DNA from: Mobula hypostoma
Lineage: Eukaryota
Assembly (NCBI RefSeq): GCF_963921235.1
Contig: NC_086097.1
Coordinates: 62,560,001-62,624,000, forward strand
Direction: 5' to 3'
Length of the DNA: 64,000 bases
The position numbers and the translations under genes were made by a program. Below the pieces are notes generated by a model, which saw only the letters and a program-made list of their open reading frames with translations, was not told the DNA's origin and searched no databases. Every line of letters begins with the position of its first letter. The stretch's first letter is position 1. Of this stretch, positions 2,031 through 62,870 are shown in pieces.

Positions 2031-2514
2031 AGCAATTGGACCCAAATTACATTGCACTCATCAAGAAATTGGAGCGGGGCATACATGGACTAGTCCTGTA
2101 GTATATCTGGCATTTTTCTTTCTTTACACATGCATCTATTAAGCATGTTTTGTTGAACAGTTATGGTACAGCTCTGTCCACATTGTGCTACCTTGACGCA
2201 TATATTTAAAGGGGCTGTCTGCTAATATCAGGACCCCTGATATTAGGCGGCATCAGAACTGAACATGGACTGCTAAAACATCACCCACAGATCACATACT
2301 GAGCTACATCTAACAAACAGTATTTAATTTAACATATTCATTCAGTGGGTACCCCAGTGTTAGAATTCCATGAATGGAAGTATCATTTATGTTAATGACT
2401 GAACCTGCAGCATAAGTCAGGAAGCTCAAGACAATCATGTTCATCTGTGATGAGCCGAAGTTACATTTTACTCCATCTGGTCCAATTCATTGGGCACTGT
2501 GTTGGATTGTAATA

Positions 2515-4144
2515 CAGGTGTCCCCTGTTTTTCGAACGTTCGCTTTACGAAACCTCACTGTTACGAAAGACCTACATTAGTACCCTGTTTACACTTTCAG
2601 AAGGTGTTTTCACTGTTACGAAGAAAGGCAGCGTGCGATAAAAAATCAGCATGTGAAAAAATCAGCGTGCGATAAAATCAGCGTGCAATAAAAGGCAGCG
2701 TGCGCCCCGAGCAGCCGCTCCGCCCCGGATTCGGAACGGCGTTGCTGAAACACATTGCATTGAGCAGCCGTTAGCAAGATGAGTTCTAAGGTGTCGGAAA
2801 AGCCTGGAAGAGCTCATAAGGGTGTTACACTTAGCGTAAAACTAGACATAATTAAGTGTTTCAATCGTGGTGAACCAAGCAAGGACAAAGTGAGTTTGGC
2901 TTGTGGAAGTTGACGAAGATGATGTTGAAGAGGTTTTGGCATCCCATGACCAAGAACTGATAGATGAAGAGCTGATGCAATTGGAAGAGGAAAGGATAAC
3001 AATCGAAACCGAATGCAGAAGGTGAAGCAACTGCGTGAGATCTTCGCTGCAATGATGAAGTACGACTTTAATCTTGAAAGGGTACGTAGGTTTAGGGGAT
3101 ATTTGCAGGATGGTTTGAGTGCTTACAAACAACTGTATGATAGAAAAATGCGTGAGGTTCAGCAGTCAAGCAAGCCTTCCACATCAGCCACAGCAGACTA
3201 TGAAACTCGACCTTCGTCATCGAGACGGGCAGTCATAAGAGAAGATGAACTGCCTGCCCTGATCAATGATGATATGACACCCCCGTGTCCCACCACCCCA
3301 ACACGCGGGCCCCAGACAGATACTGTACTGATTCGCAAAGAACGCAGCAGTAGCTGGGAGGCACACAGCACATCTTTAAGAAAAAAATGGAATAAACATG
3401 CTAATTAATTAGGTGCCGCTGACACGTAATTGTCGACCCAGATCAGTGCCGATTTCTGATTGCATCGCCTCTGATCTGGGCCGACAATTACGTGTCAGTG
3501 GCACCTAATTAATTAGCATGTTTATTTCGGCTTTTTTCTTAACGATGTGCTGTGTGCCTCCCAGCTACTGCTACATTCTTCGCGGCAATGTATCGGGTCG
3601 GCGGCCCGGAGGGTGGGGGTCACTGCACCACCCAGCCTGCGATGACTCAGTCTAACATACCATCATCAGTGTGCTCGGCGCTGTTTTCCCAATTCCGGTA
3701 AGTGATACTACACTGTACATACATTATTTCTACTTTATATAGGCTGTGTATTTTTACGTGTTATTTGGTAGATTTGTGAGCTTCATAGTTTAAAGGTTAC
3801 TGGAGAGCGCGTTTATGTCAACAGCGCTTGCATGAGGTTTTCTGCTGAGAGCGCTTGCATGAGATTTTCGCTACGGAGATCTGTGCAGGCAATCATTGTA
3901 GAGAAGTATTTCTACTTTATATAGGCTGTGTATTTATCATATCATTCCTGCTTTTACTATATGTTACTGTTATTTTAGGTTTTATGTGTTATTTGGCATG
4001 ATTTGGTAGGTTATTTTTGGGTCTGCGAACGCTCACAAAATTTTCCTATGTAAGTAAATGGTAATTGCTTCTTTGCTTTACGACATTTCAGCTTACGAAC
4101 CATTTCATAGGAACGCTCTATCTTCGGATGGCGGGGGAAACCTG
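2515..4144 (+). mobile_element. Non-autonomous, internally deleted Tigger/pogo DNA transposon, copy 1 (1630 bp)
   Basis: TA at 2513-14 and 4145-46. Imperfect TIRs CAGGTGTCCCCTGTTTTTCGAA / reverse-complement CAGGTTTCCCCCGCCATCCGAA. ATG at 2779 gives an HTH-psq-like start (GVTLSVKLDIIKCFNRGE) joined to the acidic Tigger C-terminus (EVDEDDVEEVLASHDQELIDEELMQLEEE); no DDE core. Second copy at 16050-17689. Confidence 0.9.
3290..3620. repeat. Long inverted repeat (about 120-150 bp arms, about 24 nt loop) inside Tigger copy 1
   Basis: GTAGCTGGGAGGCACACAGCACATC...AATAAACATGCTAATTAATTAGGTGCC...CAGATCAG pairs with CTGATCTG...GGCACCTAATTAATTAGCATGTTTATT...GATGTGCTGTGTGCCTCCCAGCTAC. Confidence 0.9.
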
Positions 4145-4677
4145 TAACCCCAGCCTGTGACCTGTTCTTGCTGTTTGTACCATCCCTGCATCCACACAAA
4201 AATTTTGTACCTAGAATAAAATTGAAGGGCCTCAGTTCAACAAATTAGGGAACACCCGTGCATTAGTGGTCCGGGAAGAAGTGAAAGGTTAGGCATTTGT
4301 GAATCTGCTCTCCAGCATGGCCTTGAATTGTGTATTCACAGAAACCAGGGTAAGCCTGGTTGAAGGAGATTTCAAATGTCTCCTCTGGGTGTGAAGATCT
4401 CCTCTTAGTCAAGCAATGCAGAAATAAATTTCATGTTATCATACTCTGACCTGCCCATCACTGTAGGCAACTATGTTGAGCCATTTCCATGAATGCATCA
4501 GGAATTTATTCATTCATTTGTTACTAAAAGTTTGTAGAATCAGCTGATTTATGGTGAGCCGTACTAATGCTAAAAGCTGGCACTTAGAGAGTGCCATTTG
4601 TCAGATGAGGATCTTTGTTTTATCAGGCCTTTCACTTCCAGGTAGCCAATGATATTTCCCTTAGCGATTGTATAAGG

Positions 4678-9002: not shown

Positions 9003-12000
9003 ATAGAACATAGAACATAGAATAGTACAGCACAGTACAGGCCCTTCGGCCCACAATGTTGTGCCGACACTCAAACCCTGCCTCCCATATAACCCCCCAC
9101 CTTAAATTCCTCCATATACCTGTCTAGTAGTCTCTTAAACTTCACTAGTGTATCTGCCTGCACCACTGACTCAGGCAGTGTATTCCACGCACCAACCACT
9201 CTCTGAGTAAAAAACCTTCCTCTAATATCCCCCTTGAACTTCCCACCCCTTACCTTAAAGCCATGTCCTCTTGTATTGAACAGTGGTGCCGTGGGGAAGA
9301 GGCACTGGCTATCCACTCTATCTATTCCTCTTATTATCTTGTACACCTCTATCGTGTCTCCTCTCATCTTCCTTCTCTCCAAAGAGTAAAGCCCTAGCTC
9401 CCTTAATCTCTGATCATAATCCATACTCTCTAAACCAGGCAGCATCCTGGTAAATCCTTGTACCCTTTCCAATGTTTCCACATCCTTCTTATAGTGAGGC
9501 AACCAGAACTGGACACAGTACTCCAAGTGTGGCCTAACCAGAGTTTTATAGAGCTGCATCTTTACATCGTGACTCTTAAACTCTATCCCTCGACTTATGA
9601 AAGCTAACACCACATAAGCTTTCTTAACTACGCTATCCACCTGTGAGGCAACTGTCAGGGATCTGTGGACATGTACCTGCAGATCCCTCTGTTCCTCCAC
9701 ACTACCAAGTATCCTGCCATTTACTTTGTACACTGCCTTGGAGTTTGTCCTTCCAAAGTGTACCACCTCACACTTCTCCAGGTTGAACTCCATCTGCCAC
9801 TTCTCAGCACACTTCTGCAACCTATCAATGTCTCTCTGCAATCTTCGACAATCCTCTACACTATCTACAACACCACCAACCTTTGTGTCATCTGCAAACT
9901 TGCCAATCCACCCTTCTACCCCCACATCCAGGTCATTAATAAAAATCACAAAAAGTAGCGGTCGCGGAACAGATCCTTGTGGGACACCACTAGTCACTAT
10001 CCTCCAATCTGAATGTACTCCCTCCACCATGACCCTCTGCCTTCTGCAGGCAAACCAATTCTGAATCCACATGGCCAAACTTCCCTGGATCCCATGCCTT
10101 CTGACTTTCTGAATAAGGCTACGGTGTGGAACCTTGTCAAATGTCTTACTAAAATCCATATAGATCACATCGACTGCACTATCCTCATCTATATGTCTGG
10201 TCACCTCCTCAAAGAACTCTATCAGGCTTGTTAGACACGATCTACCCTTCACAAAGCCATGCTGACTGTCCCTGATCAGACCATGATTCTCTAAATGCCC
10301 ATAGATCCTATCTCTAAGAATCTTCTCCAACAGCTTTCCCACCACAGACGTAAGGCTCACTGGTCTATAATTATCTGGACTATCCCTACTACCTTTTTTG
10401 AACAAGGGGACAACATTCGCCTCCCTCCAATCTTCTGGTACCATTCCTGTGGACAATGAGGACATAAAGATCCTAGCCAGAGGCTCAACAATCTCTTCCC
10501 TTGCCTCATGGAGCAGCCTGGGGAATATTCCGTCAGGCCCCGGGGACTTATCCGTCCTAATGCATTTTCACAACTCCAATACCTCATCTCCCTTAATATG
10601 AACATGCTCCAGAACATCAACCTCACTCATATTGTCGTCACCAACATCAAGTTCCCTCTCATTGGTGAATACCGAAAAGAAGTATTCATTGAGGACCTCA
10701 CTCGCTTCCACAGCCTCCAGGCACATCTTCCCATCTTTATCTCTAATTGGTCCTACCTTCACTCCTGTCATCCTTTTTTTCTTCACATAATTGAAGAATG
10801 CCTTGGCGTTTTCCTTTATTCTACTCGCCAAGGCCTTCTCATGCCCCCTTCTTGCTCTTCTCAGCCCCTTCTTAAGCTCCTTTCTTTCTTCCCTATAATC
10901 CTCAATAGACCCATCTGATCCTTGCTTCCTAAACCTCATGTATGCTGCCTTCTTCCACCTGACCAGATTTTCCACCTCACTTGTCACCCATGGTTCCTTC
11001 ACCCTACCATTCTTTATCTTCCTCACCGGGACAAATTTATCCCTAACATCCTGCAAGAGATCGCTAAACATCGACCACATGTCCATAGTACATTTCCCTG
11101 CAAAAACATCATCCCAATTCACATCCGCAAGTTCTAGCCTTATAGCTTCATAATTTGCCCTTCCCCAATTAAAAACTTTCCTGTCCTCTCTGATTCTATC
11201 CTTTTCCATGATAATGCTGAAGGCCAGGGAGCGGTGGTCTCTGTCCCCCAGATGCTCACCCACTGAGAGATCTGTGACCTGACCCAGTTCATTACCTAGT
11301 ACTAGATCTAGTATGACATTCCCCCTGGTCGGTCTGTCCACGTACTGTAACAGGAATCCGTCCTGGACACACTTAACAAACTCTGCCCCATCTAAACCCT
11401 TGGAACTAATCAGGTGCCAATCAATATTAGTGAAGTTAAAATCACCCATGATAACAACCCTGTTATTTTTGCAGATTTCCAAAATCTGCCTCCCAATCTG
11501 CTCCTCTGTATCTCTGCTGCTACCAGGTGCCCTATAGAATACCCCCAATAGAATAACTGCTCCCTTCCTGTTCCTGACTTCCACCCATACTGAATCAAAA
11601 GAGGATCCTGCTACATTATCCACCCTTTCTGTAGCTGTAATAGTATCCCTGACCAGTAATGCCACCCCTCCTCCCGTTTTTCTGCCCTCTCTATCCCTTT
11701 TAAAGCACTGAAATCCAGGAATATTGAGAATCCATTCCTGCCCTGGTGCCAGCCAAGTCTCTGTGATGGCCACTACATCATAATTCCATGTATGTATCCA
11801 AGCTCTCAGTTCATCACCTTTGTTCCTGATGCTTCTTGCATTGAGGTACACACATTTCAGCCCTTCTGCCTTACTACCTTTTCACCGTTTATTCTGCTTC
11901 TCTTTCCTCAAAGCCTCTCTATATGTTAGATCTGGCTTTACTCCATGCACTTCTTTCACTGCTCTATCGCTCTGGGTCCCATCCCCCTTGCAAATTAGTT

Positions 12001-15969: not shown

Positions 15970-16049
15970 AAATCCAAGCAGTGGTTGATGCCCAAGGCCA
16001 AAGGATATATCACAATTGTGGTGTTTTTCAGGATCTGTCAATCACTTTA

Positions 16050-17689
16050 CAGGTGTCCCCCGCTTTTTGAACGTTTGCTTTACGAAACCTCACTGTTATG
16101 AAAGACCTACATTAAAATCCTGTTTTCACTTTCAGAAGGTGTTTTCACTGTTACGAAGAAAGGCAGCGTGCGATAAAAAATAAGCGTGCAAAAAATCAGC
16201 GTGCGATAAAGGGCAGCGTGCACCCCGAGCAGCCACTCTCCCTCGGATTCGGAACGGCATTGCTTAAACATATTGCATTGAGCAGCCGTTAGCAAGATGA
16301 GTTATAAGGTGTCAGAAAAGCCTGAAAGAGCTTGTAAGGGTGTTACACTTAGCGTAAAACTAGACATAATTAAGCATTTCGATCATGGTGAACGAAGCAA
16401 GGACAAAGTGAGTTTGGCTTGTGGAAGCTGACAAAGATGATGTTGAAGAGGTTTTGGCATCCCATGATGAAGAACTGATAGATGAAGAGCTGATGCAATT
16501 GGAAGAGGAAAGGATAACAATCGAAACCGAATGCAGTAGCGGAAGTGAAGTCGTCCAGGAACTGAATGTGAAGCAACTGCATGAGATTTTCGCTGCAATG
16601 ATAAAGTACGACTTTAATTTTGAAAGGGTACGCAGGTTTAGGGGACTTTTGCAGGATGTTTTGAGTCCTTACAAAGAACTGTGTGATAGAAAAATGCTCG
16701 AGGCTCAGCAGTCAAGCAAGCTTTCCACATTAGCCACAGCAAACGATGAACCTCGACCTTTGACATCGAGGCAGGCAGTCATAGGAGAAGATGAACTGCC
16801 TGCCCTGATCGATGATGAGATGACACGCCCATGTCTCACCACCACAACCCCTGGGCCCCGGACAGATACTGTACTGATTCGCGGAGAATGCAGTGGTAGC
16901 CGGGAGGCACACAGCACATCTTTAAGAAAAAAGCCAAAATAAACATGTCAATTAATTAGGTGCCGCCTAGCACATAATTGTCGGCCCAGATCAGTGCCGA
17001 TGCAATCAGCAATCGCCTCTGATCTGCATCAAAATTTATGTGCCAGGCAGCACCTAATTAATTAGCATGTTTATTTCGGCATTTTTCTTAAAGATGTGCT
17101 GTGTGCCTCCCGGCTACCCCTGCGTGCTTCGCGGCAATGTATCGGTCGGCGGCCTGGAGGGTGGGGGCCACTGCACCATCCAACCTGCGACGACTCTATC
17201 TAACACACCATCATCAGTGTGCACGATGTCTTCCCAATTCCCGTAAGTGATACTACACTGTACAGACATTATTTCTCCTTTATATATGCTGTGTATTTTT
17301 ACGTGTTATTTGGTAGATTTGGCAGCTTCATAGTTTAAAGGTTACTGGAGAGCGCGTTTATGCCAACAGCGCTTACGTGAGATTTTCTGCTGAGAGCGCT
17401 TGCATGAGATTTTCGCTGCAGAGATCTGTGCAGGCAATCATTGTAGAGAAGTATTTCTACTTTATATAGGCTGTGTATTTATCATATCATTCCTGCTTTT
17501 ACTATATGTTACTGTTATTTTAGGTTTTATATGTTATTTGGCATGATTTGATAGGTTACTTTTGGGTCTGCGTACGCTCACAAAATTTTCCTATATAAAT
17601 AAATGGTAATTGCTTCTTCGCTTTACGACATTTCAGCTTACGAACCATTTCATAGGAATGCTCTACCTTCGGATGGCGGGGGAAACCTG
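16050..17689 (+). mobile_element. Non-autonomous Tigger/pogo element, copy 2 (1640 bp), with the same internal palindrome (~16840-17170)
   Basis: TA at 16048-49 and 17690-91; colinear with 2515-4144; inserted in Gypsy pol sequence. Confidence 0.9.
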
Positions 17690-19459
17690 TAATAGGTTCC
17701 TGCCAAACCTGGCTACTATGCTCCACACCTTGAACTCATCACTGCTGATCGGGCAGAAATGGCAATGGACTAAGCAAAGTGAGGTGGCTTTCCAAAAGGT
17801 AAGAGAGATGGTGATGTCAGACACTGTACTCACACATTATGATACATATCATCCAGTGAAGCTTGCCATGCATGACTTGGGAGGCCGAAACATCCAGACG
17901 AAAGGTGTTCAGAGCTGTCAGAACAACTTTCTGCAGTCCCAGACTCAACTCCCACAGCCACCACAGGGGAGGCACCAGAAACTGAGTTTCTTTCACTGGA
18001 CCCAGAACCTCGGATGGTTTTAGAGGCACAATTCTCTCCTGCTAAGTAGAATGCCCCCTAGTGAGGAAAGATGTTATCCTTCAAGATATTGTGTTTAATA
18101 TTTCAATAATATTTAATAAAATTGTAAGTATAATGTTTGATTAAGCATTCTTTGTTGTTTACATAATGCATTGTTGGTTTTCTGTAAAAGTACATAAATG
18201 GCATTTGTTCTCATGCACGTCTCACTTAAAGTAAAAACAAATTAAGACTCTCATCACTCAGATCCTTTGTTTCCCTTTAAATTAGTTTTACGTTTTGGAC
18301 TTTTGGTGGAAAGAGAAGGAGGGAGGCAGAGGCAATAAAGAGAGTTCAAGTGTTTAGTGTTTTTTCACAATCTAGAGACAAAACACCTTTTAGCAGAACA
18401 ATAATATTCCGGAATGGCAAAGAGGCCAGAACTGGAGGAGCACACATATAAATAGGAAATATAACCTTCATTTGCCTTTATTTTGTATATACATATTCAT
18501 AATAAGTGCTGAAAATATGTTTTACATCTTCTAATAAAACTACACAGTTACAATTATAGGGACAGGGAATATTCAATTCTTAGTGTGGCCTTTCGTTTAT
18601 TGAATGCCTTATTTAATGAAGAAGGGAGTTACATCTACTTCAGGATAAATTTCCTAGACACTTTGTGGGTTTCCAACTCCTGATGCCTATTAGTACGCTA
18701 TTTTCAGCTAGAACAGATGGTTCTTTTATGAGCTGAATCTGACTTTATTATGCATGCTGTGATCAAGGATTGCATGCCACATGACTAACAAGTACCCCTC
18801 AGTAACAGTGTTTTATTAAAAAACATAAGTGAATGCTCACCAAAATCACATCTCTCTGGCCACTACAAAAATTGGTAAATAATCACATCCTACCCATAAT
18901 CTATTGTAATCCTAAAGCAAATAGATTTATTGGAAAAATTATTTATTTTATATAAAAATAGATCTGTGCAGCCAAAAGCCAAAGCAGACATAATCAGAAA
19001 ACAATAACAAAAATAAGCATTCCAAATCAAAGGTTTGTTTCTCTCCATTCAACATTTTGAAAATCTTTTGCCCCTGAGATCTCTTATCCCTCAGCCTCCA
19101 GTATCTTTGAATTCTCAGTAATTTCAACCACCATCTCATTCATCCCCATATTTCACTCTCGTTTCTGAGTATGTATTGTTTCAGTCTTCTCTGTAAATTC
19201 ATCGAGTAGAATCTTTGATCCTGCCATCTTATTATGTCTCATGCTTTCTCCATCAACACCGTCCCTGGTCACTTCCATGTAAAGCTTTATTCTGAAAGTC
19301 TCTTCCTCCCTCTCACTTCGACTTCATCCCAAATCCAACCCTCAAAAAATTCTCATCAGTTATTTAGTCTCCACTTCACCATTCATCACAGCTTTTCAGT
19401 TGCTGCCAATATACTCGAACAAGCCCACACCCTATTAAAATCATAAGCTCCCATGGACA

Positions 19460-24219: not shown

Positions 24220-27200
24220 TGTTAGTGCCATTGGGGAGGCTTTAAACTAGATTTGCAGGGGGAGGGAACCAGAGTGCCAGAATTGACAGTGTGGCTGGGG
24301 TGAAAATAAATGATGTTGAAAGTTTAAGCAAATCCGCTGATAGAAAGGTTGTGAGTGGTGGTAAAAATCTTCTGAGGTGTATATATTTCAATGCTAGGAG
24401 TATTGCAGGGAAGGCGGATGAGTTGAGGGCGTGGATTGACACGTGGAATTATGACGTTATAGCAATTAGTGAAACTTGGCTACAGGAGGGGCAGGACTGG
24501 CAGCTTAATATTCTAGGGTTCCGATGTTTCAGATGTGATCAAGGCAGAGGAATGAAAGGTGGGGGAGTAGCATTGCTTGTTAGGGAAAATATTACAGCAG
24601 TGCTCAGGCAGGACAGATTAGAGGGCTTGTCTACTGAGTCCTTATGGGTGGAGCTGAGAAACAGGAAAGGTATGGCCACATTAGTGGGATTGTATTACAG
24701 ACCACCCAATAGTCAACGAGACTTGGAAGAGAAAATCTGCAGAGAGATAGCAGGCAACTGCAGGAAACATAAAGTTGTGGTGGTAGGGGATTATAATTTT
24801 CCATACATTGATTGGGACTCCCATACTGTTAGGGGTCTAGATGGTTTAGAGTTTGTAAAATGTGTTCAGGAAAGTTTTCTAAATCAATACATAGAGGGAC
24901 CAACTAGAAGGGATGCAATATTGGATCTCCTGTTAGGTAACGAATTAGGGCAAGTGACAGAAGTCTGTGTCGGGGAGCACTTTAGTTCCAGTGATCATAA
25001 CACCATTAGTTTCAATTTGATCATGGACAAGGATAGATCTGGTCCTAGGGTTGAGGTTCTGAACTGGAAGAAGGCAAATTTGAAGAAATGAGAAAGGATC
25101 TAAAAAGCGTGGATTGGGACAGGTTGTTCTCTGGCAAAGATGTGATTCGTAGGTGGGAAGCCTTCAAAGGGGAAATTTTGAGAGTGCAGAGTTTGTATGT
25201 TCCTGTCAGGATTAAAGGCAAATTGAATAGGAATAAGGAACCTTGGTTCTCAAGGGATATTGCAACTCTGAAAAAGAAGAAGAGGGAGTTGTATGAAATG
25301 TATAGGAAACAGGGGGTAAATCAGGTGCTTGAGGAGTATAAGAAGTGCAAGGAAATACTTAAGAAAGAAATCAGGAGGGCTAAAAGAAAACATGAGGTTG
25401 CCTTGGCAGTCAAAGTGAAGGATAATCCAAAGAGCTTTTACAAGTATATTAAGAGCAAAAGGATTGTAAGGGATAAAATTGGTCCTCTTGAAGATCAGAG
25501 TGGTCGACTTTGTGCGGAACCAAAGGAAATGGGGGAGATCTTAAATAGGTTTTTTGCGTCTGTATTTACTAAGGAAGCTGGCATGAAATCCATGGAATTG
25601 AGGGAATCAAGTAGAGAGACCATGGAAACTGTACAGATTGAAAAGGAGGAGGTGCTTGCTGTCTTGAGGAAAATTAAAGTGGATAAATCCCCGGGACCTG
25701 ACAGAGTGTTCCCTCGGACCTTGAAGGAGACTAGTGTTGAAATTGCGGGGATCCTGGCAGAAATATTTAAAATGTCGCTGTCTACGGGTGAAGTGCCGGA
25801 GGATTGGAGAGTGGCTCATGTTGTTCCATAGTTTAAAAAAGGATCGAAAAGTAATCTGGGAAATTATAGGCCGGTGAGTTTAACGTCAGTAGTAGGTAAG
25901 TTATTGGAGGGAGTACTAAGAGACAGAATCTACAAGCATTTGGATAGACAGGGGCTTATTAGGGAGAGTCAACATGGCTTTGTGCATGGTAGGTCATGTT
26001 TGACCAATCTGTTGGAGTTTTTCGAGGAGGTTACCAGGAAAGTGGATGAAGGGAAGGCAGTGGATATTGTCTACATGGACTTCAGTAAGGCCTTTGACAA
26101 GGTCCCGCATGGGAGGTTAGTTAGGAAAATTCAGTCGCTAGGTATACATGGAGAGGTGGTAAATTGGATTAGACATTGGCTCGAGGGAAGAAGCCAGAGA
26201 GTGGTGGTAGAGAATTGCTTCTCTGAGTGGAGGCCTGTGACTAGTGGTGTGCCACAGGGATCAGTGCTGGGTCCATTGTTATTTGTCATCTATATCAATG
26301 ATCTGGATGATAATGTGGTAAATTGGATCAGCAAGTTTGCTGATGATACAAAGATTGGAGGTGTAGTAGACAGTGAGGAAGGTTTTCAGAGCCTGCAGAG
26401 GGAATTGGACCAACTGGAAAAATGGGCTGAAAAATGGCAGATGGAGTTTAATACTGACAAGTGTGAGATATTGCATGTTGGAAGGACAAACCAAGGTAGA
26501 ACATACAGGGTTAATGGTAAGACACTGAGGAGTGCAGTGGAACAGAGGGATCTGGGAATACAGATACAAAATTCCCTAAAAGTGTCGTCACAGGTAGATA
26601 GGGTTGTAAAGAGAGCTTTTGGTACATTGGCCTTTATTAATCGAAGTATTGAGTATAAGAGCTGGAATGTTATGATGAGGTTGTATAAGGCAGTGGTGAG
26701 GCCGAATCTGGAGTATTGTGTTCAGTTTTGGTCACCAAATTACAGGAAGGATATAAATAAGGTTGAAAGAGTGCAGAGAAGGTTTACAAGGATGTTGCCG
26801 GGACTTGAGAAACTCTGTTACAGAGAAAGGTTGAATAGGTTAGGACTTTATTCCCTGGAGCGTAGAAGAATGAGGGGAGATTGGATAGAGGTATATAAAA
26901 TTATGATGGGTACAGATAGAGTGAATGCAAGCAGGCTTTTTCCACTGAAGGCAAGGGGAGAAAAAAACCAGATGATATGGGTTAAGGGTGAGGGGGGAAA
27001 AGTTTAAAGGGAACATTAGGGGGGGCTTCTTCACACAGAGAGTGGTGGGAGTATGGAATGAGCTGCCAGACGAGGTGGTAAATGCGGGTTCTTTTTTAAC
27101 ACTTAAGAATAAATTGGACAGATACATGGATGGGAGGTGTATGGAGGGATATGGTCCGTGTGCAGGTCAGTGGGACTAGGCAGAAAATGGTACAGCACAG

Positions 27201-35010: not shown

Positions 35011-35289
35011 GATCAATTTACTGTGATTCACATTTTCTTTTTCTGTTATTATGTATTGCACTGTACTGCTGCCACAAAGTTAACAAATTTCACAACATAT
35101 GCCGATATTAACCCTGATTCTGAACAATAAAAATATAAACAAGTAAACCTCAGAGTCCATGAAGGTGAATCCAGAGTAGCGGTTCAGCGCTGATTCCTGT
35201 CTCTCTCGCATAGAAGCTTGAAGTTACAATATGGATACAGTCTGACTTTTTATGTTTCATTAAGCTTTTTAATCTATTTATTCAAGGGA

Positions 35290-37446
35290 CTCAGGGCTCC
35301 TTCACAGTGGATATGCAATGGCAAGCATTTAAAGGTTGCATGGATGAACTACAACAATTGTTCATCCCAGTTTGGCAAAAGAATAAATCAAGGAAGGTAG
35401 TGCACCCGTGGCTGACAAGAGAAATTAGGGATAGTATCAATTCCAAAGAAGAAGCATACAAATTAGCCAGAAAAAGTGGCTCACCTGAGGACTGGGAGAA
35501 ATTCAGAGTTCAGCAGAGGAGGACAAAGGGCTTAATTAGGAAGGGGAAAAAAGATTATGAGAGAAAACTGGCAGGGAACATAAAAACTGACTGTAAAAGC
35601 TTTTATAGATATGTAAAAAGGAAAAGACTGGTAAAGACAAATGTAGGACCCCTACAGACAGAAACAGGTGAATTGATTATGGGAGCAAGGACATGGCAGA
35701 CCAATTGAATAATTACTTTGGTTCTGTCTTCACTAAGGAGGACATAAATAATCTTCTGGAAATAGTAGGGGACAGAGGGTCCAGTGAGATGGAGGAACTG
35801 AGCGAAATACATGTTAGTAGGGAAGTGGTGTTAGGTAAATTGAAGGGATTGAAGGCAGATAAATCCCCAGGACCAGATGGTCTGCATCCCAGAGTGCTTA
35901 AGGAAGTAGCCCAAGAAATAGTGGATGCATTAGTGATAATTTTTCAAAACTTGTTAGATTCTGGACTAGTTCTTGAAGATTGGAGGGTGGCTAATGTAAA
36001 CCCACTTTTTAAAAAAGGAGGGAGAGAGAAACCGGGGAATTATAGACCGGTTAGCCTAACGTCGGTGGTGGGGAAACTGCTGGAGTCAGTTATCAAAGAT
36101 GTGATAACAGCACATTTGGAAAGCGGTGAAATCATCGGACAAAGTCAGCATAGATTTGTGAAAGGAAAATCATGTCTGACGAATCTCATAGAATTTTTTG
36201 AGGATGTAACTAGTAGAGTGGATAGGGGAGAACCAGTGGATGTGGTGTATTTGGATTTTCAAAAGGCTTTTGACAAGGTCCCACACAGGAGATTAGTGTG
36301 CAAACTTAAAGCACACGGTATTGGGGGTAAGGTATTGATGTGGATAGAGAATTGGTTAGCAGACAGGAAGCAAAGAGTGGGAATAAACGGGACATTTTCA
36401 GAATGGCAGGCGGTGACTAGTGGGGTACCACAAGGCTCAGTGCTGGGACCCCAGTTGTTTACAATATATATTAGTGACTTGGATGAGGGAATTAAATGCA
36501 GCATCTCCAAGTTTGCGGATGACACGAAGCTGGGTGGCAGTGTTAGCTGTGAGGAGGATGCTAAGAGGATGCAGAGTGACTTGGATAGGTTGGATGAGTG
36601 GGCAAATTCATGGCAGATGCAATTTAATGTGGATTAATGTGAAGTTATCCACTTTGGTGTCAAAAACAGGAAAGCAGATTATTATCTGAATTGTGGCCGA
36701 TTAGGAAAAGGGGAGGTGCAACGAGACCTGGGTGTCATTATACACCAGTCATTGAAAGTGGGCATGCAGGTACAGCAGGCAGTGAAAAAGGCGAATGGTA
36801 TGCTGGCATTTATAGCGAGAGGATTCGAGTACAGGAGCAGGGAGGTACTACTGCAGTTGTACAAGGCCTTGGTGAGACCACACCTGGAGTATTGTGTGCA
36901 GTTTTGGTCCCCTAATCTGAGGAAAGACATCCTTGCCATTGAGGGAGTTCAAAGAAGGTTCACCAGATTGATTCCTGGGATGGCAGGACTTTCATATGAA
37001 GAAAGACTGGATGAACTGGGCTTGTACTCGTTGGAATTTAGAAGATTGAGGGGGGATCTGATTGAAACGTATAAGATCCTAAAGGGATTGGACAGACTAG
37101 ATGCAGGAAGATTGTTCCCGATGTTGGGGAAGTCCAGAACGAGGGGTCACAGTTTGAGGATAAAGGGGAAGCCTTTTAGGACCGATATGAGGAAAAACTT
37201 CTTCACACAGAGAGTGGTGAATCTGTGGAATTCTCTGCCACAGGAAACAGTTGAGGCCAGTTCATTGGCTATATTTAAGAGGGAGTTAGATATGGCCCTT
37301 GTGGCTACGGGGATCGGGGGTATGGAGGGAAGGCTGGGGCAGGGTTCTGAGTTGGATGATCAGCCATGATCATAGTAAATGGCGGTGCAGGCTCGAAGGG
37401 CCGAATGGCCTACTCCTGCACCTACTTTCTATGTTTCTATGTTTCT
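35290..37446 (+). mobile_element. CR1 LINE, 5'-truncated (tether + RT + 3' UTR)
   Basis: ORFs 35307-35708, 35693-36637 and 36716-37369 with RT motifs; tail TTTCTATGTTTCTATGTTTCT. Confidence 0.95.
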
Positions 37447-37739: not shown

Positions 37740-38375
37740 AGGGACAAACAGAGTGGATAGCCAGAGATCTTTTCTCAGGGCAGAAATGGCTAATACAAGG
37801 GGCATCATTTTGGAGATTGGAGGAAAGTATCAAAGGGAATATGAGGGCAGGTCTTTTACAGAGTAGTAGTTGTGCGGAATATGCTGCTGGGGTGGTGGGA
37901 GAGGCGGATACATTAGGGACATTTAATAGTTGCTTAGGTAGGCACATAGGTGATAGAAAAATGGAGGGCAATGTGGGAGGGAAGGGTTAGGCTGATTTTA
38001 GAGTAGATTAAAAGGTCAGCACAACATTGTGGGCTGAAGGGCCTGTATGTGCTGTAGTGTTTTAGACCTTTCAGTTTCCCAAGCACTTGCCCCTCAGGTG
38101 CAGTTGAATTTCGGATATGCAACTGCTGTCTTCCATAGTGATGACTAACGCAAAATAGTTAGGCACAATACCTGTTGTTTCTTTATTCCCTATTACTATC
38201 ATTCCAGCAATCCAAAGTCCACTTTTGACTCTCCTTTATTCTTTATATATCGGAAAATCTTTTTGGCATCCTCTTTCATACTATTGGCTGCTTACCGTCA
38301 TATTTCATCTTTGCTCTCCTTATTGCTTTTTTTAGTTGCGGCTGTTGGTTTTTTTCTAAAGCTTCCCATCCTTTA
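37740..38375. mobile_element. CR1 3' fragment (+, 37740-38060) abutting a CR1 internal fragment (-, 38060-38375)
   Basis: CACAACATTGTGGGCTGAAGGGCCTGTA 3' motif, followed by antisense VLGKLKGLK. Confidence 0.7.
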
Positions 38376-40440: not shown

Positions 40441-40821
40441 TATCTTTTCAATGGAACATACTTATCAATGGGTTTTGCATGGACTGGTGATCCAGGTTGT
40501 CCTATTCCATTGTGCCTAGTCTGTGGCAAACAAATTACAAATGCAACAATGGCTCCAGCAAAACACTTAACTACAAATCACAGCCATATGACATGCAAAA
40601 GTGATGATTATTTTAAACAACCAGTGTAATCTCAAAACAAAGAGATTAAAGCTTTTGGAAATAAAGTCACAGTCAGTAAAAGGTTCAGGAAGCAAGTTAT
40701 TCAGTAGCTTTAGGTCCAGTTCACTCCAGAATGTTTTACCTCCCTCTGCAACCAAATCCTTGACTTTCTCATCAGGAGACTACAGTCAATGCAGTTCAGA
40801 AATAACATCTCCTCTTCACTG

Positions 40822-41310
40822 ACAATGAGCACCAGTGCACTGCAAGAATGTGTGCTTAGTTCTCTACACTCATGACTGTGTGACTAGCCACAGCTCAAAC
40901 AGCATCCAATGACACAGCTATTGTTGGCATAAACTCAGATAGTGACGAGAAGGTGCACAGGAGTGAGATAGATTGGATGGTTGAGCGGAGTCGCAGCAAC
41001 AACCTTGCACTCAAAGTCAGTAAGACCACAGAATTGATTATGGACTTCATGAAGAGGAAGCTGAAGAACCACGCACCAGTCCTTACTGAGGGATCAGCAG
41101 TGGAAAGGGTGAGCAGCTTTAAGTTTCTGAGTGTCAACATCTCTGCAGATTTATCCTGGGCCCAACATATTGACGCAATTACAAATAAGTCACAAAAGCA
41201 GCTATCTTTCATTCAGAGTTCAAAAAGACTGGGCATGACATTAAAGACCTTTGTAAATTTCAACAGTTGTACCATAGAGAGCATGTTAATTGAGCATGTC
41301 AAGTCTGGTA
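40822..41310 (+). mobile_element. Decayed Rex1/Babar RT fragment
   Basis: SNNLALKVSKTTELIMDF...VERVSSFKFL...CTIES. Confidence 0.8.
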
Positions 41311-42626
41311 TAGAGGAACTGATATAGCGATATATTAGACCAGCAGAAAAAAATCTATTCAGTTTCTAGGCGCAAGTCCTTCTTCACAATACCATTTCAA
41401 ACAAAGATCCCCAAACCATGTTGTTATATCTTACCTCAGAGTCTTGATTTTCTGCACATTTCCCTCCCCCATTCCTTGCACATAAGAATACAGACAGAAC
41501 AAAAACTATTCTGTTTTATAACATATCCCCCCTTTCCAATTTACCATGCAGTCCACAGGGTGGAGTGATGCCTCCCTATCAGTAGCTGTAGTACAATTCA
41601 TGGCATAAAGCACAGTATGTGCAAAAAACCAACAGTTAGTTATGTTGCAATTTGCCTATCGCCACAGTAGGTCAACGGCAGATGCAATCTCAATGGCTCT
41701 CCACGCAGTTTTCGACCACCTGGACAAGACAAACACCTATATCAGGATGCAGTTCATCAACTATAGCTCAGTATTTAATGTCATCATTCCCACAATCCTG
41801 ATTGAAAAGTTGCAGAACCTGGGTTTCTGTCCCTCCCTCTGCAATTGGATCCCCGACTTCCTAACCGGAAGACCACAATCTCTGCGGATTGGTGATAACA
41901 TATCCTCCTCACTGACGATCAATCCAGGCACATCTCAGGGGTGCGTGCATAGCCCACTGCTCTACTCTCTGCATACACATGACTGTGTAGCTAGGCATAG
42001 CTCAAGTACCATCTACAAATTTACTGATGATACAACCATTGTTGGTAGAATCTCAGGTGGTGACGAGAGGGCGTAAAGGAGTGAGATATGCCAACTAGTG
42101 GAATGGTGTCGCAGCAACAACCTGGCACTTAACATCAGTAAGATGAAAGAGCTGATTGCGGACTTCAGGAAGGGTAAGACGAAGGAACACAAACCAATCC
42201 CCATAGAGGGATCAGAAGTGGAAAGAGTGAGCAGCTTCAAGTTCCTGGGTGTCAAGATCTCTGAGGATCTAACCTGGTCCCAATATATCGACCTAGTTAT
42301 AAAGAAGACAAGACAGCGGCTATACTTTATTAGGCGTTTGAAGAGATTTGGCATGTCAACAAATACACTCAAAAACTTCTATAGTTGTACAGTGGAGAGC
42401 ATTCTGACAGGCTGCATCACTGGCTGGTATGGAGGGGCTACTGCACAGGACCGAAAGAAGCTGCAGGAAGTTGTATATCTAATCAGCTCCATCTTGGGCA
42501 CTAGCCTACAAAGTACCCAGGACATCTTTAGGGAGCGGTGTCTCAGAAAGGCAGCATCCATTATTAAGGACGTTCAGCACCCAGGGCATGCCCTTTCTCA
42601 CTGTTCCCCTCTGCCATCCAATTCCT

Positions 42627-46307: not shown

Positions 46308-46535
46308 AGAATCAGAATTAATATCATGGACACCATGAAATCTGTTGGTTTGCAGCTTCAGTACAATGCAATACATACAAAACAACATAAATTACAATAA
46401 GACATATAAACAGTATATTAAAAAAATTAATGTAATAAGTATTTAAATAAACCAGCAAAAATAGTGAGGTAGTGTTCAAGGATTGGTTCACTGCTGTTCA
46501 GAAATCTGATGGCGAGGGGAAGAAAGTGTTCCTAA
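46308..46535 (-). mobile_element. Rex1-type 3' UTR/tail fragment (related copy at ~49070-49350)
   Basis: AGAATCAGAAT tail and similarity to the reverse complement of 43140-43287. Confidence 0.65.
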
Positions 46536-46734
46536 CTTTCCAAACTTCGTACATCCAACTACTATTTCGGTGTAACTGGGTGGAACAAGGAACAATTTCA
46601 GACATAAACTTTCTGTGCTTGACTTGATAGTTATTTTTCAGATATTGGAGCAGTCACCTGATAGAAGCATAAGATACTATCACCAAGTTTAACTTATCCA
46701 GAGGCTGGAGGAACTGTAGCTGTTCTATCATCAG

Positions 46735-48268
46735 AGAACATAGAACATAAAAAATGGAAAAATACAGCATAGATACAGGCATAATATTGTGCTGAGCTAA
46801 TTAAAATAGTAATCAAATGGACAACTAAACTAAATTCTTCTTTCTTTTACAATCTTTTTTATTGAGTTTCAAATTGATAAACATAATGATAATGATACAA
46901 AGAGATCGGGATTACAGTAATAATGATTAATGTATACAGACATAGATTCCGAGTAACATATTTAATTTAAACCTCCCAATCTCTTAATAACTGAACATGA
47001 AAAAGGTTTTTAAAAAAGTTTTTACCCCCTACACTAAAAAATAACAAAACAAAACAAAACAATACAAAGACTCGGCTGCCATATTTCATTGGTTAAGATC
47101 ATTATTTGTCATTAACTCTGCTCCTCTATACATAAGCAAAAAGTTATTAAAAAGGATTCGGAAAAGGTCAACTTACATCATATAAAAATGTTGAATTCTC
47201 CAACTAATTAACACTTCTTTAGTGTGAGCTAAACACGCTTTTATACAATTTAAGGTGGTTCATAGGGCCCGTATGTCTAAGGATAAGTTAGCTCATTTTT
47301 ATGGTCATATAAATCCTGTCTGTGACGGATGTAATTCTGAGGTAGCTTCCTTGACACATATGTTCTGGTCTTGCCCTCTTTTGGAAAAATATTGGGAAGA
47401 CATTTTTGATATTATTTCAGTAGTTTTGTGTATCGATTTACAACCTCATCCTATTCCTGAAATTTTTGGATTACCAGTGATAGACTTTAGTCATTTATCC
47501 CCTTCAGCTTGTCGTTTGATTGCATTTGTTACATTAATAGCCAGAAGATCCATTTTATTTAAATGGAAAGATTCTAATCCCCCTACTACATTTCAATAGT
47601 TTTCCCAAACTATAACAAGTTTAAATTTGGAAAAAAATTAGGAGTGGTACCATTGAACCTTCGGTTAAATTTGAAGAAACTTGGAGGCCATTTAAACTAA
47701 ACTCTTCTGCCTTCTAAATGTCTGCATCCTTCCATTTTCCAGGTGTCTATCTAAATGTCTCTTAAAAGCCCTTCATGTATCTGCCTCTACAAGCACTTCA
47801 GGCAGCACATTCCAGGCACCCAACACTACCCGTGTAAAAAAAACTTGACCCTCACATCTCCTTTGAAATTACCCCCCCTCACCTTAAATGCATGCCCTCC
47901 AGTTTTAGACATTACAACCCTGGGGAAATTATACAGTCTGTCCAATCTATCTATGCCTCTCACAATCTTACAATCCTTTATCAAAACTCCCCTCAGCCTC
48001 CACTGCTTCAGAGAAACAACCTAAGTCTGTCCAACCTCTCATTATTGTACATGACCTCTAATCCAGGCAGCATCCTAGTAAATCCATTCCCTCTCCAAAG
48101 CCTCGACGTCTTTCTGATAATGAGGCCACCAGAAGTGTATGCAAAACTCCAGATGCAATTAACTCGAGTTTTATAAAACTGCAACGTAACTTCCCGATTT
48201 TTGAACAGTGCCCTGACTAATGAAGGCAAGCATGCCATATGCCTTCTTAACCACCCTATCAACCTGTG
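46735..48268 (-). mobile_element. CR1 3' fragment interrupted by an L1 insertion
   Basis: AGAACATAGAACATA tail at 46735; CR1 sequence resumes after 47693 (antisense GFTRMLPGLE...ERLDRL). Confidence 0.8.
46842..47692 (-). mobile_element. L1 insertion with 5' inversion (3' UTR on - strand 46842-47196; inverted ORF2 C-terminus on + strand 47195-47692), 16-bp TSD
   Basis: + segment IQFKVVHR...CDGC...HMFWSCP...FEETWRPF; - segment continues IQHFYMM* then UTR, AATAAA and an A-rich tail. TSD TAAACTAAA(T/C)TCTTCT at 46826-41 and 47693-708. Confidence 0.85.
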
Positions 48269-49849
48269 CCAAGGCGTAAAACCAAGTATGATGTGGAACA
48301 GGGAGAACAGGAGCCCTGCATTTTCTGCTGTTCTCCAAAACTGTCCAGGGACTACTTCCAGCAAGTTACTTGACCCAAAGTTAATTAATTGGCAAGAAAC
48401 CCTCAACTGAATTATTGTGATGAGCACCAAGGTGTTGTAACTGGGACATGCTGCCTGCACAAATAACTCAGAAACCATTCCCTCTGTATACACATGGGGT
48501 TATTGAGAACTTTCGGTATTGTACATTGATTGGACAAAGGTCGGAACATGAGGCTGGCAGCTATGGTATTGAGATAACTTACAGTTATCAGTCACGCTTG
48601 CATCAGTCAGTTTGCAAACAGCTAGTCTAAATTTATCCCTAAGCTACAATGACAAGGATAAGGATAATAATAAAGGCTGATAAAGAATACTATGCATCAA
48701 AAGCAAATAGGGAGCATTAAAGGACCAGAATGGGAAAGAATGGCAATTATATCTGCAGCTCCAGACAGATGCTTCCTCAACAGCCATTGAAAAGTTACCT
48801 AGGAAAGATATTGCATTGTGCAAAATTGTTCCTGCCACCCATAAACCCCTGCCAAATAACCTAAATATTATTAATTATTATTATTAAATGCAGTATTTAA
48901 TATAAAATCTAAGAAATCAAGGCGGGTAAATTAGATCAAGAAACTTCTGTGTACTTTGCTGCTTTAAGCTTTAATAATTATTAGATCTAAAGTAGCTCCC
49001 TCAGACTTGTTTGGTCCTAATTTTATTTCATTTAAAATTGATACCAGTAGCTTCTCAGGGCTTTAAATTAGAATTAGAGTCAGGTTTATTATCACTGACA
49101 TTTGTCATGAAAGTTGTTCTGCAGCAGCAGTACAGTGCAAGACATAAAAATCACTGAAAATTACAATAAGAATATATAAAATATAAATAGTGTAATAAAA
49201 GAGCAAATAGTCAGGTAGTGTTTATGTGTTCATACACCATTCAGAGATCTGATGGTGGGGAGTGGGGGTGTGGTGGGTGGAAGAAGCTTTTGCTGAAACA
49301 TTGAATGAGCATCTTCAGGCTCCTGTACCTCCTTCTTGATGGTAGCTATGAGCTTTATCTAGACTAAATTCATTTAAAGTTTTAATGAAGTGTATCTATA
49401 ATTGTTCTGATAGGCAACAGGAAGCAATCGTGATATACTTCAAATCAATTTTAAAATTTAGTTAAACATTTCTGCATGAAACTTCATTCTCCATTTGAAG
49501 AAGTGCAGCATGTTGCATGTACCTCACAAATTCACTCCTGACAGGATGAAATTCCATACTTTGGGTTTTTAGCTAAGTGTACTATCATAATGCAGGTAAA
49601 TGATAGTCTGGAAATTTATAATACCAGGCAGGTGAATCAGTGTCTGCATTCTCTCCTTGGTCAACATTCCCAACCCTGGGTCTGTGACTATGATGAACCA
49701 GTTCTTCCACAAACCTAATACCGCAAGGTTCATGTGAACAGATTTTTAAGATATAGAGAAAATACTTCAACAATGTCCCAACCTTGCTTGAGGAATATAT
49801 ATCCTGGGCTTCTGAGCAAAGGGAAGCATCCAGAAGGACACAGTGCTCC

Positions 49850-50344: not shown

Positions 50345-51566
50345 TGTTGTGTTCTTTATATTCATATGTACCGTGGGTTACTAATAAAGAACCATCTTCT
50401 GGAAGAAATAGATCTTTTATTTAACAACAACCGCAACGTTTTTACAATACCATTTTTCCTGATCTTTCTATCATTCCTGTGCATGCTCAGAACTCTGTCC
50501 AATCACGTTCTTACACGTCCTATCACCACATCTTCCTTTCCTCAAAAAGAAAAACAATTAGCAATATTGACTAGAGAAAATGCATAATTTAACATGTCTC
50601 TGTCAATCTCTCGGGGGGTTTATGAACACGAGTAGACCTTCTCAGTGGTTCACACAGTTCTTGTGTTTCGTTGTTATTATTTTTTCTAATATGTTTGCAC
50701 TTCCTCACAGCGTCTGCATTGCAGTTCTCAATGAAAAGGTCTTTAGCCTGTGACTTCATGGTTTCTGAAGCTTTGCAGAGCATCAAAGCTTTTTCCAAGT
50801 CTAAGTCTTGTTCTCTTAACAGTCTTTCTCTCTGACTATTGTCCAGAATGCCACAAACAATTCTGTCCTCAATGAGAGAGTCTGTCAGTTCTCCAAACTC
50901 GCACGTTTTACTCCGGTGTCTCAACTCAGTCACATATTGATCAATAGTTTCACTAGCTCTCTGCATACATGTAAAAAAATCTATGCCGCTCGTACGTCAT
51001 ATTACGCTTCTGTGTACAAAATGCTTCAAATTTGTCCATTATCAATTTTAACTTTAAATTATCTCCATTTTCAAAAATAAAATGATTATATACCTCAATT
51101 GCGTCGTCACCTATTATGTGGAGTAGAAGCGCAGCTTTCGTTTTTTCTGGTTTTCAATCCACATCGATCGCCGATAAATACAATTCAAAACGTTGCTTAA
51201 ATTTTCTCTAATTCTCAGCTACATTCCCAGACAATTGAAGTGTCGATGGAGGCCGCAAACCTTCCATTTGTAAAACTGTAAGCAAACACCAAAACAGTTC
51301 AAACTCTTTTTTCAGAAAATTATCTTCGATTCTCCCGCGTTAAGAAATGTATTATTCTTCCAGACCGACTTCTGACACCATGTCGTGTTCTTTATATTCA
51401 TACGTTCCATGGGTTACTAATAAAGAACACTCTTCTATAAGAAACAAAAAATTTATTTAACAACAACCACAATGTTTTCACACTACCGTCTTTCTCGATC
51501 TTTCTATCATTCCTGCGCATGCTCAGAACTCTCTCCAATCATGTTCTTACACATCACATCACCACA
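50345..51566 (-). mobile_element. Short non-autonomous gag-only Gypsy LTR element (1222 bp)
   Basis: 186-bp LTRs at 50345-50530 and 51381-51566 (TG...CA); PBS TGGTGTCAGAAGT (51380-51368); PPT GGAAAGGAAGA; imperfect 5-bp TSD CTATA/CTGCA. Confidence 0.92.
50589..51267 (-). pseudogene. Gypsy gag (two stops, one frameshift) fused in frame to a pol/integrase-type tail
   Basis: MEGLRPPSTLQLSGNVAEN*RKFKQRFELYL...ERHRFF...CEFGELTDSLIEDRIVCGI...RERLLRE, then EPLRRSTRVHKPPERL. Confidence 0.85.
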
Positions 51567-60654: not shown

Positions 60655-61330
60655 GAATTTCAAAGGTTTAAAGGTTCTTTTATTATCAAAGTATGTATGC
60701 AGTATGCATCTCTGAGATTCATCTTCTCCAGATAGCCATGAAACAAAGAAAAAATATGAAAGTTGTTCAGAGAGAAACATCACCCCACCCCACCCTTCCC
60801 CCCCACACACACACACACATTAAAAAAATTGTATCCCAATCATCAACCCACAAATCCCCTTCACCCGCACAAAATTGACCCCACCCCCCACTTTCCCCCT
60901 GCACAAAATGCAACAAGTACATCGACTCCCATATTCCCCTCTCCCGCACATACCACATCAAGAACATCCTTATCAACCCCTCCCCTGCACAAAAAAACTA
61001 ACAGAATATAGCAAGAACATCAAACCCCAAAATTCCTCCCCTTGCACAACAAAACGGAAAAGGAACGGACAAAAGGCACAGAAAATAAAAACTCTAAGTC
61101 TGAAAAAATCCACAGTCCATAACACAATAGTCCTATCCATAAACCCAGAATCACGGTAAGACCCACCAACGTCAAACACAGAGAGGCCCACCCACCTGCC
61201 ACAGTGAGCCGCACAGCGACAGGCTGCTCACCAACTCCTTCTCTGGCAGCAATCAAAGGGCAGGCAGTTGTCGATGAACTCTCGTTCTCCTTCCATATTC
61301 GTCCCAATTTCTCAATCTTCCTCGATGCTT
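60655..61330 (-). mobile_element. LINE/SINE-type 3' repeat with internal C-rich reiterations (related to the host of the Gypsy insertion at ~50220-50344 and 51567-51700)
   Basis: AAAGGTTC.TTTATTATCAAAGTAT...TAGCCATGAAAC.AAGAAA is shared with 50226-50300. Confidence 0.6.
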
Positions 61331-61391
61331 TAAACTGCAATTAATGGACACTTTAGCTGGCAAATTGGAGTTGAACATCGGCTCCATTTTA

Positions 61392-62828
61392 CGAGAGGTG
61401 ATTGGTAAGTTCATGGCCTAAGGTAGAAGGAGTTAATTTTAGAAAACCTACCACATTTATTTTTCCTACATTTACGGCATTTAGTCCAGCGGTCATGGAG
61501 CATATGGATCCCTGCTTTGTAGAAATCAGCATTTTGGACCTCCAGAAAGTGGTCCACAGCAGGGGTAATTGATAAGTTTGTGGCCTAAGGTAGAAGGAGA
61601 TGAGTTATACAGCTCTCGTTACATGCACATGCAGTTCATCTCTGGGTGATTATGCAGAAAGTTTGAAGTCATCTTGAGGAAATACTGTACGTCAGTGTGC
61701 TACAGGATGAAAAGGCGCTATTTCTTCAACTGCCCCTAGTTTCTCCTTTATCCCTACCCTATTATGTCTGCAGATAGCAGAACAAATATACTTTATACTT
61801 TATTGTCGCCAAACAATTGATACTAGAACGTACAATCATCACAATGATATACGGTGCGGCTCACTGTGGCAGGTAGGTGGGCCTCTCTGTGTTTGTGTGG
61901 TGTCCCTCTTTTTAGGTGACGTTGGTGGGTCTTACCGTGATTCTGGGTTTATGGATAGGACCATTGTGTTATGGACTGTGGATTTTTTCAGACTTAAGAG
62001 TTTTTATTTTCTGTGCCTTTTGTCCGTTCCTTTTCCGTTTTGTTGTGCAAGGGGAGGGATTTTGGGGTTTGATGTTCTTGCTGTATTCTGTTACATACAG
62101 CAATTTTTTGGTTTGTGAAGGATTGAATGTCAGTTTTAATCAGAGTTTTGTAGATATTAAACATTACAAATGAGAACCAGTGCAACAAGAAAAACTGTCG
62201 AGGGTTCTCAGCCTCAGGCAACATCTGTGAAGAGAGAAGGATAGTGAATATTTCAGATTGAGAGCTTGTGATTGAAATCCATCAAGTCCCAATGCTTTGA
62301 GTCCCTGACCTGCTTATTCCTCCACATCCAGGCATCTAACTGTCTTGTGTCTCCAAATGAGAATCAGAAGTGGTCCACAGCAGGGGTGATTGATAAGTTT
62401 GTGGTAGAAGGAGATGAGTTATTAATTTCAAACTTTCTGCATTTTTACTCAGAGAGTTGTACTGCACATGCATGTAACGAGAGCTGTATAACTCATGTCC
62501 TTCTACCTTAGGCCACAATCTTTTCAATCACCTCTGCTGTTGACACCTGGAGGTCCAAGACGCTCTCGTTACATGCACGTACAGTTCAACTCTTTGAGTA
62601 ATAATGCAGAAAGTTTGAAGTTAATAACTCATATCCTTCTACCTTAGGCCACAAACTTATCAATCACCCCTGCTGTGGACCGCTTCTACAAAGAAGGGAT
62701 CTGTATGCTCCGCGACCGCTGGACTAAGTGTGTACATGTAGAAGGGGACTATGTTGAAAAATAAACGTGCTAGGTTTTCTAAAATTGGCTCTTCTACCTT
62801 ATGCCACAAACTTATCAATCACCCCTCG
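61392..62828. mobile_element. Mariner-derived multi-TIR structure (two inverted parts, ~61392-61670 and ~62365-62828)
   Basis: Outer TA + CGAG(A/G)GGTGATTG(G/A)TAAGTT TIRs at both ends; mariner transposase C-terminus LRDRWTKCVHVEGDYVEK* at ~62708-62764, with a partial inverted counterpart at ~61455-61510; four more internal TIR copies. Confidence 0.8.
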
Positions 62829-62870
62829 TATACCTTTTGAATGATAAGAAACCCCTTTTTACTTGTCATC

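Follow-up and report, generated by a model that had tools for sequence, protein, structure and literature searches.

5' inversions of L1 insertions are explained by the twin-priming model, which reportedly goes back to Ostertag and Kazazian in 2001. Among human L1 insertions the accessible text of one report gives a 5'-inverted share of 18-22%, with breakpoints within 20 bp in 132 of 287 inverted cases (PMC12016303). In tumours, the tail-primed part of inverted L1 copies is on average 2.6 times longer than the inverted part, according to the available portion of a second report (10.1101/2024.08.27.596794). Inverted L1 inserts carry target site duplications (TSDs) of 10-20 bp with a peak near 15, and the same source, as far as its accessible text goes, describes 5' inversions only for human L1 in human cells, bar one insert, and concludes that inversion depends on host and LINE (PMC4245944). 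The exception was a single insert of zebrafish Nimb-2_DR, 5'-inverted and obtained in chicken DT40 cells; with human L1 no inversions were seen in that line, and a long (10-20 nt) overhang was proposed as a requirement for inversion (PMC4245944, accessible text). The available portions of PMC5389967, PMC6007223, PMC9977147, PMC4255032 and PMC13174262 contain no non-mammalian 5' inversion. We found no report of a 5' inversion for an L1 of cartilaginous fish in the literature that we covered, but because that coverage is partial, notably for LINE work in zebrafish and yeast, 'not yet reported' is a weak claim.

Here we describe a 5'-inverted L1 copy within a 64-kb window of ray DNA, the window being the whole stretch that was analysed. 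We read the insert as the outcome of a single L1 retrotransposition that proceeded by twin priming, with a probability of about 0.85. Like twin-primed L1 copies of humans and other mammals, as the accessible parts of those reports describe them, the insert has a single TSD of about 15 bp, an inverted piece situated at the TSD, near-adjacent breakpoints close to the 3' end of the element, microhomology at both junctions and a 5' truncation. Unlike the mammalian cases in those texts, it lies in a cartilaginous fish (a ray), has a 7-nt A-rich tail and not poly(A), and shows a non-canonical nick site. Its inverted part (500 nt) also exceeds its non-inverted part (355 nt), the reverse of the tumour average in the available text (10.1101/2024.08.27.596794). 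With the Nimb-2_DR insert in DT40 cells, it shares a non-mammalian LINE, a setting outside mammalian cells and an element with a long TSD; that insert, in contrast, was engineered, sits in a foreign cell line and comes from a LINE treated as distinct from L1, whereas the window copy is a natural germline copy that we file under the L1 clade (PMC4245944, accessible text).

Layout of the insert and its CR1 host

The insert is an L1-clade LINE fragment of 851 bp (46842-47692, ~0.85 kb) lying between two copies of a 16-bp target sequence (Table 1). The original prediction had put the TSD at 16 bp with one mismatch, and this is what we find: the two copies are alike at 15 of 16 positions, and on neither strand does the 64-kb window contain a further site with at least 14 of 16 positions matching the left copy. 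From base composition, the chance of a 15/16 match is 5.5e-8 per site. A single TSD encloses both L1 parts, and its 16 bp fall within the 10-20 bp range.

Table 1 Features of the inverted L1 copy and of the CR1 element around it, in window coordinates
Feature	Position	Strand	Basis
Host CR1 LINE, remaining 3' UTR and terminus	46740..46825	-	83% over 41 nt to CR1 end 9003-9042; alignment to 37740-38031
Tail-side (3' end) TSD copy	46826..46841		15/16 against 47693-47708; sole such pair within the window
7-nt A-rich tail with 6 A	46842..46848	-	continues into the purine-rich TSD end
L1 3' UTR, non-inverted, putatively tail-primed cDNA	46849..47172	-	downstream of ORF2 stop; high-depth family contigs in 4/4 runs, save masked repeat 46999-47072
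AATAAA polyadenylation signal	46858..46863	-	sequence reading
ORF2 last seven codons and stop (IQHFYMM, stop), 5' end of non-inverted part	47173..47196	-	translation; matches loose ends of family contigs
Inversion junction	47193..47196		2 nt of microhomology certain (47195-47196), 4 nt at most
Inverted 500-nt piece from the ORF2 C-terminus, putatively internally primed cDNA	47195..47694	+	zf-RVT; tblastn; protein identity
5'-end TSD copy	47693..47708		first 2 nt common to L1 family sequence; joint at 47694
Host CR1 LINE, ORF2 end and start of 3' UTR	47709..48397	-	tblastn to in-window CR1 ORF, E 2e-27, 4e-10 and 6e-8; blastn 68% to 9100-9645

The minus segment had been described as IQHFYMM and a stop from 47196, followed by a 3' UTR, AATAAA and an A-rich tail. 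Indeed, 47196-47173 reads IQHFYMM plus stop, AATAAA stands at 46863-46858, and the tail is A-rich but not a poly(A) run, and only 7 nt long (46848-46842). Translation of the plus segment gives the C-terminus of ORF2, beginning with ILQL at 47195 and closing with WRPF, which ends at 47693; it contains two in-frame stops (47225-47227 and 47597-47599) and one frameshift near 47631-47637. An end in EETWRPF at 47692 had been proposed; the WRPF end stands, but the true reach is 1-2 nt further, in bases common to the TSD.

The insertion was also said to lie inside a CR1 tail. We find that the host is an older CR1 whose 3' UTR was split by the L1: the minus strand carries remnants of the CR1 ORF2 at 48397-47737, and near 46740-46780 there is a CR1-type 3' end. 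When the insert and one repeat were removed in silico, the resulting empty site aligned across the junction to the CR1-type 3' end at 37740-38031 (66%, E 6e-23). Furthermore, among the 12 of 63 rows listed, three CR1 contigs skip the insert, leaving 12, 32 and 39 letters in between; a single target predicts 12, 34 and 42. The worry that the 16-mer was already duplicated in the host CR1 is therefore not borne out, as the target region is single in CR1 relatives. The L1 copy has no known function and its sole effect is the splitting of a dead CR1.

Three long copies that we take to be of CR1 type are present in the window (9074-11881, minus strand; 24246-27130 and 35214-37366, plus strand), with endonuclease and RT frames that are largely open. 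Because the three copies are only 66-68% alike, the window appears to hold several CR1 families.

Family identity and adjacency of the two segments

The inverted piece contains a Pfam zf-RVT domain (E 1e-6, above the cut-off) and is 66-75% identical to five batoid-type L1 proteins. The nearest named relatives of the plus segment are four Hypanus sabinus gene models (66-74%); the L1-derived ends of Hypanus sabinus models P0002-P0005 are 67-72% identical to the window copy, and the closest protein overall is P0007 (77%). A distant relative, L002:90-5619, is an apparently intact fish-type L1 on a contig of a metagenome collection, with a Transposase_22 ORF1, an ORF2 of 1,270 codons and the domains Exo_endo_phos, RVT_1, zf-RVT and Transposase_22. 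The window copy is 45% identical to residues 1097-1239 of the L002 ORF2 (E 2e-29). The copy is 5'-truncated, and APE endonuclease, RT and L1-type ORF1 are absent from it; we file it under the L1 clade because of its 45% identity to the end of the L002 ORF2 and because L002 carries endonuclease, RT and L1-type ORF1 domains, an assignment by sequence likeness. Like L002 and the Hypanus sabinus L1-derived ends, the window copy has an ORF2 C-terminus with zf-RVT, but unlike these relatives it keeps only the last 0.85 kb of the element and is dead, rearranged and decayed. No second copy of this L1 family occurs elsewhere within the 64-kb window, and no family DNA was found among viral contigs or prokaryote genomes. 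In a metagenome scan, 2 of 232 pattern matches were confirmed, both of them distant L1 at 49%.

P0002-P0005, Hypanus sabinus models named BBS5, METTL21A and FAM185A, have C-terminal ends made of L1 ORF2 sequence, and P0015, a Thalassophryne amazonica serpin model, also terminates in such sequence. In P0004 and P0015 a non-L1 N-terminus is joined to the L1 ORF2 sequence. These L1-tailed models are either exonised L1 or gene-model artefacts.

A twin-primed copy was predicted to have two segments from one family with adjacent breakpoints. Family contigs from four public runs were aligned to 46400-48200 at 85% likeness. A joint that connects 47694 with 47195 on the other strand was present in all four runs (at least 2, 1, 2 and 1 contigs, among the 15 of 750 joints listed), and one letter at this joint fits both sides, which gives a 1-nt overlap of the breakpoints. 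Where family contigs continue past 47694 as loose ends, their sequence is that of the start of the minus segment (22 contigs in X1, 44 in X9). Because the joint recurs in 4/4 runs and the loose ends match, we conclude that intact family copies run straight through and that the breakpoints are adjacent. Proteins agree with this: 19 were retrieved, and of the 9 at 67% identity or more, 6 run from W-x-P/S-F into I-Q/R-x-F-H (P0008 reads KFEETWRPFIQHF across this stretch), the other 3 ending or changing frame earlier. The two segments are thus of one family and colinear in its other copies, as the original prediction supposed.

Junctions and the route of insertion

Short microhomologies had been claimed for both junctions, and both were recovered. 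The 5' junction has 2 nt (47693-47694) that belong to both TSD and family sequence. At the inversion junction, 47195-47196 fit either segment, so that 2 nt are certain; homologs with R or K before ILQ would add 1-2 nt, for up to 4 nt (47193-47196), a bound taken from proteins only. The inverted 5' part begins at the TSD edge with the base nearest the internal breakpoint, where the plus segment ends in WRPF. The insert therefore has the geometry of twin priming that had been proposed for it, with a single TSD, an inverted 5' part, adjacent breakpoints and microhomology at both junctions, and in addition its target is single-copy in relatives of the host.

The order of steps that we propose follows the twin-priming model as described in the accessible parts of PMC2912911 and 10.1101/2024.08.27.596794. 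The first nick, by ORF2p, would have fallen in the plus strand behind the pyrimidine run that ends at 47708, and the nicked 3' end would have primed on the RNA tail to give cDNA 1, from 46842 to 47196. While cDNA 1 was still incomplete, a second nick 16 nt away would have released a 3' overhang of 16 nt. This overhang may then have annealed to an internal site of the same RNA, ~350 nt from the RNA 3' end (2 terminal matches; 9-10 of 16 positions in all), and would there have primed cDNA 2, a copy of ~500 nt towards the 5' end. Given the 1-nt overlap, we infer that cDNA 1 stopped at the seat of the second primer. The two cDNA ends would finally have met by 2-4 nt of complementarity, followed by fill-in.

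We asked how well the overhang fits its putative priming site by scoring the complete 16-mer at each of the 839 positions of the 854-nt fragment, read in sense order. With the left TSD copy, the internal priming site matches at 10 of 16, tied for best and reached by 4 of the 839 positions; with the right copy instead, it matches at 9 of 16, reached by 14 positions. When G-U pairs are counted, 37-41 of the 839 positions do as well as the priming site. The same 2 terminal nucleotides begin 81 of the 839 positions, so a 2-nt microhomology is common by chance. The overhang match at the priming site thus lends modest support to pairing along the overhang. A comparable 'snap-velcro' tolerance in the tail priming of human L1, to which extended overhang pairing can be likened, appears in the accessible text of PMC3649969. 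The nick site itself is a pyrimidine run followed by G, TTCT/G, which lies outside the three canonical sites given in the available portion of PMC12016303 and is one base from TTTT/G.

A longer, hidden pairing between the cDNA ends was also considered, in which the antisense of the early 3' UTR (47111-47155) would resemble ORF2 residues that lie just upstream of the inverted part. The plus-strand translation of 47111-47155 matches P0002 and P0003 at 8 of 15 residues in exact register (shuffle p ~0.0007, best of 5 homologs), and this register is top or joint top of ~1,150-1,550 registers for these two proteins. The likeness has no counterpart in the closest protein, P0007 (77%), nor in P0004, P0005 or P0011, and over the 39 nt next to the inversion junction the identity cannot exceed 17/39. 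We judge it to be probably chance, and a real relationship of these sequences would seem improbable.

Could an ordinary 5'-truncated L1 have had its front 500 nt flipped later, by a micro-inversion at the DNA level? The copy differs from the family majority at 18 or more positions in its 851 nt (18 of the 20 rows listed; 232 further rows), a decay of at least 2%, and because of these private differences it is not fresh; together with the one TSD mismatch, this makes it old enough for later events. The flip would, however, need a breakpoint no more than 2 nt from the TSD edge with the TSD kept intact and every base retained, and among the 25 longest of 37 inverted repeat pairs none links the two ends of the flipped piece. 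We consider such a flip very improbable. We hold to the same low degree an inversion made during insertion by a route other than classical twin priming on one RNA, either through a second L1 RNA or through back-to-front joining of cDNA by host repair. The number of RNAs is not recorded in the final sequence, and both strand-switching variants of twin priming and events with two L1 RNAs have been described in tumours (10.1101/2024.08.27.596794, available portion). However, one RNA with a blocking primer predicts the 1-nt overlap whereas two RNAs explain no adjacency, and the overhang match at the priming site favours priming over ligation.

An assembly artefact is less probable still. No contig bridges the two junctions of the window's own insert, among the 32 of ~33,900 pieces listed, but a misjoin would account neither for the duplicated 16 bp, nor for adjacency exact to the base, nor for private decay in each of the two parts, and the X1 flank contigs differ from the window by 0, 1 and 0. 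X1 holds 0.54 of the words, close to the flank share of 0.50, and is without the letters of the window at 46943, 47242 and 47434; no absence of the insert from X1 or X5 follows, since rare variants within high-copy repeats are lost from contigs. Almost no weight falls on a pair of independent L1 insertions, whether nested or head to head: the window is rich in nested LINEs, but one TSD surrounds both parts, the plus part is without a 3' end of its own and the adjacency holds to 1 nt. Twin priming remains the reading that we prefer, and against it we count that there is one copy only, that the tail is 7 nt long and that the nick site is non-canonical, along with the chance frequency of 2-nt microhomologies, the weaker overhang match with the right TSD copy or with G-U pairs, the failure of human L1 to invert in DT40 cells and the want of a bridging contig among those listed.

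Implications and neighbouring repeats

On this reading, the ray copy shows that twin priming is not limited to mammals and is otherwise an expected kind of event. The mechanism is already known, and the copy is a clean example of it in a new host group (n=1). Since a natural ray L1 carries a 16-bp TSD and all the junction marks, it fits the long-overhang rule and argues against a host factor found only in mammals. The question of host versus element thereby becomes testable within one genome, by setting the inversions of each family against TSD length. We also entertain a broader hypothesis, which we think doubtful on present grounds: that twin priming is a regular and old pathway of vertebrate L1, running in the germ lines of cartilaginous fish at a near-mammalian rate, and that discontinuous pairing over all 16 nt of the overhang, beyond its last bases, selects the internal site. 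If this were true, human L1 would fail to invert in chicken cells either through a loss or because of the cell line, and thousands of natural events in ray genomes would be available to test what determines the inversion rate.

Several other repeats lie in the window. A 1.6-kb repeat pair (2513-4147 and 16048-17692) is 88% identical, and a 250-nt piece of it additionally aligns as an inverted match (3334-3584 with 17133-16880, 85%); its peptide looks to us like the end of a Tigger/pogo transposase. Two neighbouring RT-bearing fragments at 40739-41284 and 41609-42625 are 70% alike and belong to a LINE family that is neither CR1 nor this L1, presumably one of the Rex1/Babar type. An open frame of 135 residues at 50592-50996 on the minus strand resembles what we take to be a Gypsy gag fragment. 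Finally, short repeats in both orientations cluster at 60999-62830, including 60999-61214, which matches 62093-61854 inverted at 88%.
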